A DNA stretch of 64,000 nt from Candidatus Doudnabacteria bacterium (GCA_016186915.1 JACPKU010000006.1:173739-237738); one strand, 5' to 3'. Positions 21,930 through 22,135 are shown, numbered from the stretch's first letter. The notes: generated from the sequence alone by a model not told the origin. Made by a program: numbers and translations.

Positions 21930-21996
21930 AAAATTACTAGAACTGGCGAGCTGCTCCGTCCGCCTCTTGCGGACGGACTCCACCCCGCGACGAATA
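21930..21996 (-). pseudogene. Degenerate partial copy of the tRNA-fMet gene (a 16 nt exact duplicate of its 5' end, TCGTCGCGGGGTGGAG, with the D-loop replaced by a 9 bp hairpin)
   Basis: The exact repeat lies at about 21978-21993 and 21680-21695. The hairpin is TCCGTCCGC-AAGAG-GCGGACGGA. Confidence 0.6.
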
Positions 21997-22135
21997 AAAA
22001 ACAGGTCTTTCGACTGCCTGCCGGCCGGCAGGGATTTCCTACTCGTCCGCCGAAGTCCCGCGAAGCGGGACGAAGGCGGATGTCACGCCCGACTCGGAAT
22101 ACGAAATCCTGTATCTCGTTTATTTTAGCAGATAT
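21997..22135 (-). other. GC-rich, highly structured block (candidate ncRNA or att-site remnant)
   Basis: It contains the hairpin GTCCCGC-TTCG-GCGGGAC, the 16 nt palindrome CCTGCCGGCCGGCAGG and a flanking CCGCC/GGCGG pair. It ends GACCUGUUUUUUAUU. Confidence 0.3.

Follow-up and report, generated by a model that had tools for sequence, protein, structure and literature searches.

How did a second, broken 5' end of the tRNA-fMet gene come to lie beside a small GIY-YIG nuclease gene and a cluster of GC-rich hairpins in a Candidatus Doudnabacteria bacterium? The locus is found in a 64,000 nucleotide (nt) stretch of one genome (GCA_016186915.1, JACPKU010000006.1:173739-237738), the whole of which is called the window here. 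A first-pass annotation, made from the sequence alone, had proposed that it is probably the remnant of a tRNA-targeting mobile element. This proposal gains support from relatives in which the site is empty, from the targeting of tRNA genes across the gene family and from the second, disrupted tRNA copies found with it. We hold with moderate confidence that a small free-standing homing-type GIY-YIG gene, one of a family that colonises structural-RNA genes, has decayed here and left this locus as its remnant.

The tRNA fragment, the pseudogene and related loci

All features of the locus lie on the minus strand. The 16 nt sequence TCGTCGCGGGGTGGAG spans 4 nt of 5' flank and nt 1-12 of the tRNA, and it occurs exactly twice, at 21681-21696 and 21978-21993 (0 occurrences expected from 100 shuffles). 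The two copies are 297 nt apart from start to start with about 285 nt between them, as the duplicate had been described. One copy belongs to the intact tRNA-fMet gene (21617-21692; anticodon CAU, C1-A72 mismatch, Rfam tRNA score 63 bits), in which nt 1-26 and a few upstream bases form the duplicated segment. The other opens an orphan 5' fragment (21946-21993), which reads TCGT-CGCGGGGTGGAG-[TCCGTCCGCAAGAGGCGGACGGA]-GCAGCTCGC from 21993 to 21946. It is comprised of 4 nt of flank, nt 1-12 of tRNA-fMet, a 23 nt palindromic hairpin (TCCGTCCGCAAGAGGCGGACGGA, 21955-21977, family TCCGCC-N-GGCGGA) that replaces the D-loop CAATTG, and nt 19-26 (GCAGCTCGC), with no similarity to the intact gene beyond this point. 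The tRNA-like sequence with a disrupted D-loop, noticed earlier, is this fragment. Splicing of the orphan to the intact gene, or a functional split or nested tRNA, was rejected at this locus as the orphan has nothing past nt 26 and its D-loop is destroyed.

Between the copies lies an open reading frame (ORF; 21929-21774, 51 amino acids) that matches Pfam family PF01541 with an E value of 1e-11. The GIY-YIG assignment of the first-pass annotation is therefore upheld, but its description of the ORF as truncated is not, since nothing has been deleted; the gene is disabled by a nonsense codon and a frameshift and the remainder is still there. Reading through the TAA (21776-21774) adds 21 in-frame codons, and PF01541 then covers residues 1-67 of 73 (E value 1e-15, 58 bits against a cut-off of 22.6). 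The complete GIY-YIG (UPF0213-like) pseudogene occupies 21708-21929 and consists of 51 codons, TAA, 21 codons and TGA. The TAA (21774-21776) replaces a Tyr codon, which is TAT in the related locus L010 (L numbers denote the loci compared), and removes the family-invariant Glu of the REK motif (E62). The second lesion, relative to L010, is a 1 nt deletion at approximately 21726-21727, the exact place of which is ambiguous within TCTAG/TG. With this base restored the frame gives ..RKFLKGVLSSRGGAIGSSQGS followed by a stop, enters the tRNA and ends at the anticodon-loop TAA, as it does in L010 and the metagenomic locus L021.

The window copy keeps Y15, G17, R25 and H29. E62 lies past the TAA and the C-terminus is frameshifted, and the window copy is therefore a pseudogene. 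The full set of invariant residues (Tyr, Tyr, Arg, His and the REK Glu) is found in one open frame in L010 and L021 but not in the window. Three independent assemblies from other sequencing runs are identical to it across the leader, orphan, TAA and frameshift (L093 and L095 through both lesions), so both lesions are real and sequencing or assembly error was rejected. Reassignment or read-through of the TAA found no support either, as other genes end normally and the frameshift is also present.

Homologues of the ORF are mostly 73-122 amino acids long with a single GIY-YIG domain, and those of 79-91 amino acids align over 100% of the read-through sequence. Matches in the PDB are to the UPF0213 proteins 1ZG2 (E value 5e-12) and 1YWL (E value 3e-10), with SLX1 next. 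No second Pfam domain was found in the ORF protein, the whole of which is catalytic domain, and the intact protein is predicted to be a UPF0213/YhbQ-like catalytic domain only, of about 80-90 amino acids. No database record exists for the exact 51 amino acid product, PADLOC gave no defence-system match, and a scan of viral contigs for the ORF family gave nothing.

The tRNA operon comprises tRNA-fMet (21692-21617), tRNA-Met (21485-21409) and tRNA-Asp (21404-21328), as called by ARAGORN and Rfam. The gene for the CCA-adding enzyme (23806-22394) lies upstream, and RmuC and NYN genes and tRNA-Arg(CCG) lie downstream. The window CCA enzyme is 48-54% identical to those of Candidatus Doudnabacteria genomes. 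These genomes keep the order CCA enzyme, tRNA-fMet, tRNA-Met, tRNA-Asp ... tRNA-Arg. In six syntenic relatives (L002-L008) the promoter and leader are followed by the tRNA, with no ORF and no orphan. L010 (GCA_030699765.1) and L021 carry the same orphan fragment with the same D-loop hairpin, a full-length intact ORF and an intact tRNA-fMet. The intact ORFs of L010 and L021 continue into the tRNA and end at the UAA of its anticodon loop. The homologous site is polymorphic for presence and absence, being occupied in the window, L010 and L021 and empty in L002-L008. The comparison with related tRNA-fMet loci suggested by the first-pass annotation identifies the segment as an insertion, absent as ORF and as orphan from the six relatives. 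A full-length gene without a tRNA duplication in relatives would have pointed to an ordinary resident gene; L010 and L021 carry both the gene and the duplication.

The duplicated unit of L021 is 38 nt of 5' flank plus tRNA nt 1-26, and its copies are identical except for the D-loop hairpin. From these limits the ORF sits between nt 26 and 27 of the original gene, the duplicated upstream segment restoring the tRNA. The orphan hairpin is at the same place in L010 (TCCGCCGGAGGCGGA) and L021 (TCCGCCTAGGCGGA), with compensatory differences in the stem. The orphan occupies the ancestral tRNA position, because in the window it directly follows the leader. Set against the occupied L010 and L021, the six empty relatives therefore place the entry of the element into tRNA-fMet at nt 26/27 in a common ancestor, with duplication of the 5' segment. 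The ORFs of the window and L010 are 63% identical, as are their CCA enzymes, and from this equal divergence the insertion predates the split between them.

A partial tRNA duplication is the classic scar left by an integrase, and one homologue (L011) adjoins a serine recombinase gene. An integrase-mediated island or prophage that entered tRNA-fMet and was later deleted is nonetheless very improbable. The duplicate is made of the 5' end and upstream flank and not the 3' end, the copies are separated by only ~300 nt, and the locus has no integrase or recombinase gene (its neighbours being the CCA enzyme, RmuC and NYN). Dozens of loci show the same compact architecture with a GIY-YIG ORF alone between the copies, and in no occupied relative was an island with an integrase seen between orphan and intact tRNA.

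The first-pass annotation had also noted the association of GIY-YIG genes with group I introns, a link that was not borne out at this locus. The ORF protein does have a weak similarity to TIGR01453 (group I intron endonuclease), which is sub-threshold and the only match in NCBIfam, and the relative L013 has a group I intron in the anticodon loop of its tRNA-fMet. Searches against Rfam, however, gave no Intron_gpI match at E values up to 10 in 21200-22500. The tRNA-fMet of the window is uninterrupted, and the ORF is flanked by a duplication and not by exons, the insertion being at nt 26/27 and not in the anticodon loop. It is extremely improbable that the locus is a degenerate group I intron in tRNA-fMet with an intron-encoded GIY-YIG endonuclease.

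The L013 intron (1975-2295; Rfam Intron_gpI, 75 bits) served as a positive control. The same operon of L013 has a GIY-YIG element in its elongator tRNA-Met, with a hairpin-bearing copy at about 2404-2480 and the ORF from 2501. In L021 a second GIY-YIG C-terminus remnant (FFKTGKGREFLKKVIN and a stop, 2875-2925) lies directly upstream of the elongator tRNA-Met, and an orphan 3' copy of tRNA-Met with a long GC hairpin in its T-loop is found at 3040-3105. The second remnant indicates that one operon was invaded repeatedly.

The D-arm of tRNA-fMet is GAGCAATTGGCAGCTC in occupied genomes and GAGAAATGGCATCTC in unoccupied ones. The longer motif is GGAGCAATTGGCAGCTC in the window, L010 and L021, AGAGAAATGGCATCTC in L003, L004, L006 and L008, and AGAGAAATAGTATCTC in L007, the remaining tRNA being nearly identical. 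This split could reflect phylogeny or target specificity. A foreign origin of tRNA nt 1-26 by co-conversion is not supported, as the orphan carries the same D-arm type as the intact copy; given this shared type, phylogeny explains the split equally well.

The ORF family at RNA genes

A metagenome scan with a query alignment of 8 sequences gave 80 more loci, 84 in total; the metagenomic loci were found through the ORF, hence the frequency of empty sites cannot be derived from them. A tRNA on the same strand lies within about 150 nt of the ORF in 54 of the 84 loci (22 downstream, 25 upstream and 7 on both sides), and the adjoining tRNAs have at least 12 identities. Of all the tRNAs called in these loci, a single one is encoded on the opposite strand. 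On the side of the ORF away from its tRNA, a partial or degenerate copy of that tRNA is nearly always present and scores well above shuffled sequence. There are 66 non-redundant loci with enough flanking sequence, and in 45 of these a significant direct repeat flanks the ORF, with a GC hairpin in 49. Where a tRNA abuts the ORF, the flanking repeat is the partial or degenerate second copy of that tRNA. The ORF usually extends into the downstream tRNA copy at its 5' part, where the D-loop or anticodon loop supplies the stop codon.

Other members are associated with longer structural RNAs. ORFs are present inside 23S rRNA genes at three loci and, at one, 113 nt downstream of transfer-messenger RNA (tmRNA); these are L077 2501-2698, L089 1465-1665, L086 243-443 and L091 2501-2719. 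Neither a group I intron at the gathering threshold nor a palindrome was found at the 23S rRNA and tmRNA loci.

ORF clades follow tRNA identity with some switches. The closest relative of the window ORF (65-66% identical), for example, overlaps a tRNA-Pro(UGG) in an unrelated context (L011). L003, which is empty at tRNA-fMet, has an orphan tRNA-like 5' fragment and a GIY-YIG ORF at tRNA-Arg(CCG), and the tRNA-Arg site of the window is empty. The ratio of nonsynonymous to synonymous substitution rates (dN/dS) is 0.06-0.10 for pairs with dS of 0.5-1.5, and intact members therefore encode a functional protein.

The same selection would also fit a vertically inherited, resident or domesticated UPF0213-type protein with a housekeeping role related to tRNA (processing or repair, for instance), the tRNA fragments being local tandem duplications that have decayed. 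That the ORF and the CCA enzyme next to it have diverged equally between the window and L010 agrees with this, as does the way in which clades largely keep to one tRNA identity within the GC range of the host. The ORF is also always co-oriented, and apparently co-transcribed, with the tRNA. A resident gene would not be expected to be absent from this locus in six relatives and to have died in the window, however, nor to have paralogues at other tRNA genes of related genomes (tRNA-Arg in L003 and tRNA-Pro in L011). Members inside 23S rRNA, and the duplicated, disrupted copy of the target that usually accompanies the ORF, speak against it too. We consider this explanation unlikely.

A homing-type gene could have produced the locus as follows. 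A copy of the ORF would have entered tRNA-fMet between nt 26 and 27 in the common ancestor of the window, L010 and L021 lineages, bringing with it a replacement for the upstream segment. The tRNA, which is essential, would have stayed intact and the ORF would have gained transcription from the operon promoter. Spread may resemble that of free-standing homing endonucleases, the nuclease breaking an unoccupied RNA gene and repair copying the ORF from the occupied allele. Conserved tRNA segments would provide the homology for repair, with occasional jumps between tRNA identities. The redundant orphan copy and the leader loops afterwards gained GC-rich palindromes of two recurrent families. In the window lineage the ORF has since died through the TAA and frameshift, losing the catalytic Glu, which is the expected end state of a fixed homing gene.

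Several points weigh against homing. The nuclease activity and cleavage site of family members are predictions from sequence, and the protein, being a catalytic domain only, has no DNA-binding domain to account for site specificity. The occupied allele retains an intact tRNA that is presumably cleavable. The equal divergence of ORF and CCA enzyme and the purifying selection fit long vertical residence or domestication as well as recurrent homing. Among the loci compared, no recent pair of occupied and empty sites with near-identical flanks was found, and we therefore infer the exact inserted segment. Simple homing also leaves unexplained the conserved palindrome that is described below.

Disrupted second copies are found at two further tRNA genes of the window. 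At tRNA-Thr(CGU) (32870-32944, minus strand; region 32840-33060) two tandem partial 5' copies lie upstream (32959-33015 and 33022-33051). The intact tRNA-Thr is bracketed by complementary 9-mers, CCCCGTACC upstream and GGTACGGGG downstream, and there is no GIY-YIG ORF there. These copies may represent an older cycle of tRNA-targeted insertion. At tRNA-Gly(CCC) (34863-34936, minus strand; region 34800-35010) the intact tRNA-Gly lies within an insert that apparently interrupts the T-loop of a degenerate outer copy. This outer copy has its 5' part at 34959-35009 and its T-stem 3' strand, acceptor 3' strand and CCA at about 34806-34822. An inverted repeat of 12-13 bp (CCGCACCAAAATT / AATTTGGTGCGG) borders the insert. 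Copies of tRNA-Met in L007 (7570-7800) and L010 (3446-3595) are nested in the same way.

The operon leader, its palindromes and the neighbouring sequence

The GC-rich structured block upstream of the orphan had been counted as part of the element. Its stacked hairpins and 16 nt palindrome are present as described. Three of the 20 perfect GC hairpins of the window fall within 120 nt here, and the fold z-scores of the block are -3.9 and -4.2. The hairpins include GTCCCGCTTCGCGGGAC (22055-22071), which is nested in TCCGCC...GGCGGA (22046-22080), and the perfect palindrome CCTGCCGGCCGGCAGG (22017-22032, no strand assigned). The block does not belong to the element, however. An alignment (A4), RNAalifold and a covariance model (R1) identify it as the resident 5' leader hairpin of the tRNA-fMet/Met/Asp operon (21988-22113; ACAGG..GTGACAT..GGAAATCC..CCTGTTTTTT).

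The leader is about 50 nt long in relatives and about 115 nt in the window. Its compact form in L003, L004, L005, L006, L007, L008 and L021 is ACAGG-ATTTCGA-TTCC-GAGGTGACATA-GGAA-ATCC-..-CCTGTTTTT. The first tRNA begins about 10-25 nt past the leader in most compact relatives, and L003 has a 120 nt repeat element between the two. RNAalifold gave 14 pairs on alignment A4, 4 of them compensatory, with an invariant loop. R1 was built only from the seven compact leaders (L003-L008 and L021) and matches the window once, at 21988-22113 on the minus strand, over model positions 1-60 (full length) with 25 bits and an E value of 5e-4. It also recovers the expanded leaders of L010 and L002. A sigma-70-like promoter of the tRNA operon (22122-22150; TTGATT, 17 nt, TG-TAAAAT) precedes the leader, and in L003-L008, L010 and L021 the matching promoter reads TTGATTTTTT..TATAAT, with a spacer of 17 nt in L003-L008 and L021. 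From the R1 match and the matching promoter (22150-22122) we therefore conclude that the block is the resident operon leader enlarged by insertions.

One insertion is the palindrome TCCGCC-TTC[GTCCCGCTTCGCGGGAC]TTC-GGCGGA in the apical loop of the leader; its own loop holds the second palindrome, with a TTC repeat on either side. A GC-rich expansion is present at this leader position in L010 and absent from the compact relatives. The palindrome CCTGCCGGCCGGCAGG lies on the 3' side of the leader and belongs to the recurrent family CCTGCC(TGCC)GGCAGG(CAGG). Rfam searches at E values up to 10, with 21200-22500 of the window and the compact leader of L007, returned tRNAs and chance matches only, with no riboswitch, small RNA family or group I intron. 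The identities tmRNA, RNase P RNA and signal recognition particle RNA were rejected for the block by Rfam and by its homology to the short leader. The direct repeat GGCAGTCGAA (about 22008 and about 22213) was rejected as a target-site duplication, as one copy is inside a conserved small basic ORF. The leader apical loop (G)AGGUGACAUA (about 22086-22096) is invariant and contains a Shine-Dalgarno-like GAGGUGA with no start codon after it. The leader hairpin and its U-run look like a promoter-proximal terminator or attenuator.

The palindromes of the leader and orphan recur across the ORF family. Either TCCGCC-N2-4-GGCGGA (or a close variant) or CCTGCC(TGCC)GGCAGG(CAGG) is present in nearly all disrupted tRNA copies, where it takes the place of the D-loop, anticodon arm, variable region or T-loop. 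TCCGCC-N2-4-GGCGGA has 58 copies in 406 kb. Of these, 47 fall in the 57.7 kb that lie within 300 nt of ORFs and 11 in the remaining 348.7 kb, which is a 26-fold enrichment. The stem is conserved and the loop variable across hosts with a GC content of 0.32-0.65 and many tRNA identities. Up to three palindromes are found in older pseudo-copies, whose ORF has been almost wholly deleted, and one in younger pseudo-copies. The CCTGCC..GGCAGG family is found in or beside orphan tRNA copies of L003, L030, L036, L044 and L068, and inside atpA of L001. Three of the five palindromes that the window has from the two families are at the locus.

TCCGCC-NNN-GGCGGA is also present in-frame in proteins, where it encodes Ser-Ala-X-Gly-Gly in either orientation. 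Two tandem copies lie in atpG of the window (27599-27628; gene 27230-28138, minus strand), and others lie in atpA of L001 (725-790) and L009 (1980-2010). The window gamma subunit aligns ~11 residues longer than its best solved homologue; the local alignment is ambiguous. The recurrent 15 nt palindrome, which is translation-neutral in both orientations, may represent a new class of palindromic mini-insertion in reduced genomes.

One way to account for these palindromes is a system of the kind formed by repetitive extragenic palindromic (REP) elements and REP-associated tyrosine transposases (RAYT). The nuclease would create or move the palindromes, or use them as cis sites or ends, and the hairpin-disabled tRNA copies would be functional and not debris. 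The enrichment near ORFs and the conserved stem with its variable loop are consistent with this, as are the three perfect GC hairpins clustered within about 120 nt and the share of recurrent-family palindromes at the locus. The larger number of palindromes on older pseudo-copies and the in-frame copies in atpG and atpA also agree. All of this is purely correlative, however, and palindromes may just be tolerated solely in dispensable hairpin loops. An identical palindrome of the second family stands beside ORFs that are only about 56% identical and may track the host and not the ORF. In the group I intron of L014 the same sequence takes the position of an ordinary covarying RNA hairpin of L013, and the ORFs inside rRNA have no palindromes. 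On balance such a nuclease-palindrome system seems distinctly unlikely.

A broader proposal is that GIY-YIG proteins, hairpin-disabled pseudo-tRNAs and both palindromes jointly form an unrecognised bacterial mobile system. We regard this as speculative and rather unlikely. Under this proposal a nuclease made up of the catalytic domain alone would reside in tRNA operons, and its recognition would be of DNA structure or of the palindrome and not of a long sequence. Palindromes would be seeded at break sites, which would include loops of tRNA copies, leaders and, in-frame as Ser-Ala-X-Gly-Gly, proteins. The element might also keep the sole intact copy of an essential tRNA downstream of itself, which would make it hard to lose.

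Other features near the locus are resident or repetitive. A hairpin resembling an intrinsic terminator (CCTCCGCAAGGGAGG and a T run, 22150-22184, minus strand) closes the upstream unit. Between the CCA-enzyme gene and the tRNA operon is a Lys/Arg-rich small ORF of 22 amino acids (MAKKRKRATKKKKSGSRRKKRV, 22193-22261, minus strand), which is resident and outside the element. It is conserved, has its own terminator and has equivalents at the same place in L006 and L010. It is easily missed by annotation, being below the 30 amino acid minimum of the ORF list.

A structured repeat of ~95 nt is found in the window at 21498-21594, 61790-61881 and 63395-63493, in L003 at 7455-7570 and in L010 at 3335-3440. 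The window copies are about 80% identical. One lies between tRNA-fMet and tRNA-Met and two, in inverted orientation, flank dnaB (61964-63376; Pfam DnaB). The family has no Rfam match and could be a regulatory element or one resembling a miniature inverted-repeat transposable element. An AT-rich palindromic repeat of 26-34 nt (TACATTCATACA..TGTATGAATGTA) has three copies in the window (3040-3073, 3176-3207 and 19748-19785), of which one separates the NYN gene from tRNA-Arg. The repeat is probably a terminator-like element shared by these sites.

Comparison with known systems

UPF0213/YhbQ-like proteins are widespread and we know of no agreed function for them. The UPF0213/YhbQ-type proteins 1ZG2 (BH0048) and 1YWL (EF2693) share sequence family, size and a single GIY-YIG domain with the window family, and are structural-genomics proteins deposited as hypothetical. 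Our literature search found no published link of UPF0213 proteins to tRNA genes or mobility, nor any account of small GIY-YIG genes of bacteria with duplicated tRNA sequence on their flanks. The present locus, with its about 80 homologous loci, suggests a biology for at least one large UPF0213/YhbQ-like clade, as selfish genes inside tRNA, rRNA and tmRNA genes. Its members would keep the host RNA intact by partial duplication and leave hairpin-marked pseudo-tRNAs behind. This would explain some of the tRNA fragments, and some of the unusually long spacers of tRNA operons, in Doudnabacteria-like and other genomes, and it bears on tRNA gene calling in metagenome-assembled genomes.

By analogy, SegB of phage T4 appears to be the closest characterised counterpart of the locus. 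This GIY-YIG homing endonuclease is encoded by a free-standing gene within the T4 tRNA gene cluster, and its target includes an 11-bp T-psi-C stem-loop; its spread involves co-conversion of the tRNA genes nearby, and it is present in some related genomes and absent from others (PMC2330249). In both cases the GIY-YIG gene is free among tRNA genes with no intron, and the target of SegB is a conserved tRNA motif. The window family likewise has its sites in highly conserved, essential sequence, namely the tRNA genes of at least 12 identities, 23S rRNA and tmRNA. SegB, however, is a phage gene of demonstrated activity, whereas the window family is chromosomal and known here from sequence, and the tRNA duplication and palindrome-disrupted pseudo-copy of the window family are not described for SegB. 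SegB is also longer and has a DNA-binding region, and in I-TevI a separate DNA-binding domain is joined to the catalytic domain; window-family proteins have about 80-90 amino acids and a catalytic domain only. As the ORF protein has no DNA-binding domain, we do not claim a Seg or I-TevI architecture for it, only a similar way of life. The family offers a directly testable candidate for a homing nuclease of minimal size, one that lacks a DNA-binding domain.

Rickettsia palindromic elements and REP elements are short dispersed palindromes, and in REP/RAYT the enzyme gene is flanked by the repeats (reviews PMC10969869, PMC3184786). The GC-rich palindromes of the window are similarly dispersed in a reduced genome and tolerated in-frame and in RNA genes. 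They differ in being 14-23 nt long and few per genome, with a GIY-YIG nuclease as candidate partner, no tyrosine transposase and a putative mobility.

In Caldiarchaeum tRNA-Thr a 5' fragment lies upstream of an insertion (PMC3293823). As in the window, the 5' tRNA fragment precedes the inserted element and an intact tRNA follows. The archaeal element, in contrast, is 1.8 kb long and encodes a recombinase, and its outcome is introns or split tRNAs via the splicing endonuclease; the locus described here has no recombinase and no evidence of splicing.

The arrangement of the window also has a likeness in organelles. According to Paquin, Laforest and Lang, writing in 1994 and 2000, free-standing GIY-YIG and LAGLIDADG ORFs of fungal mitochondria reportedly enter the ends of genes carrying a replacement copy of the displaced segment, and are said to be accompanied by GC-rich palindromic clusters or double-hairpin elements. 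There, as in the window, an essential gene is entered, a duplicated segment restores its function and a displaced orphan is left, with GC palindromes in an AT-rich genome. The fungal targets are organelle protein-coding genes in which the 3' end is duplicated, whereas the window family is found at bacterial tRNA, rRNA and tmRNA genes and has its palindromes inside the orphan.

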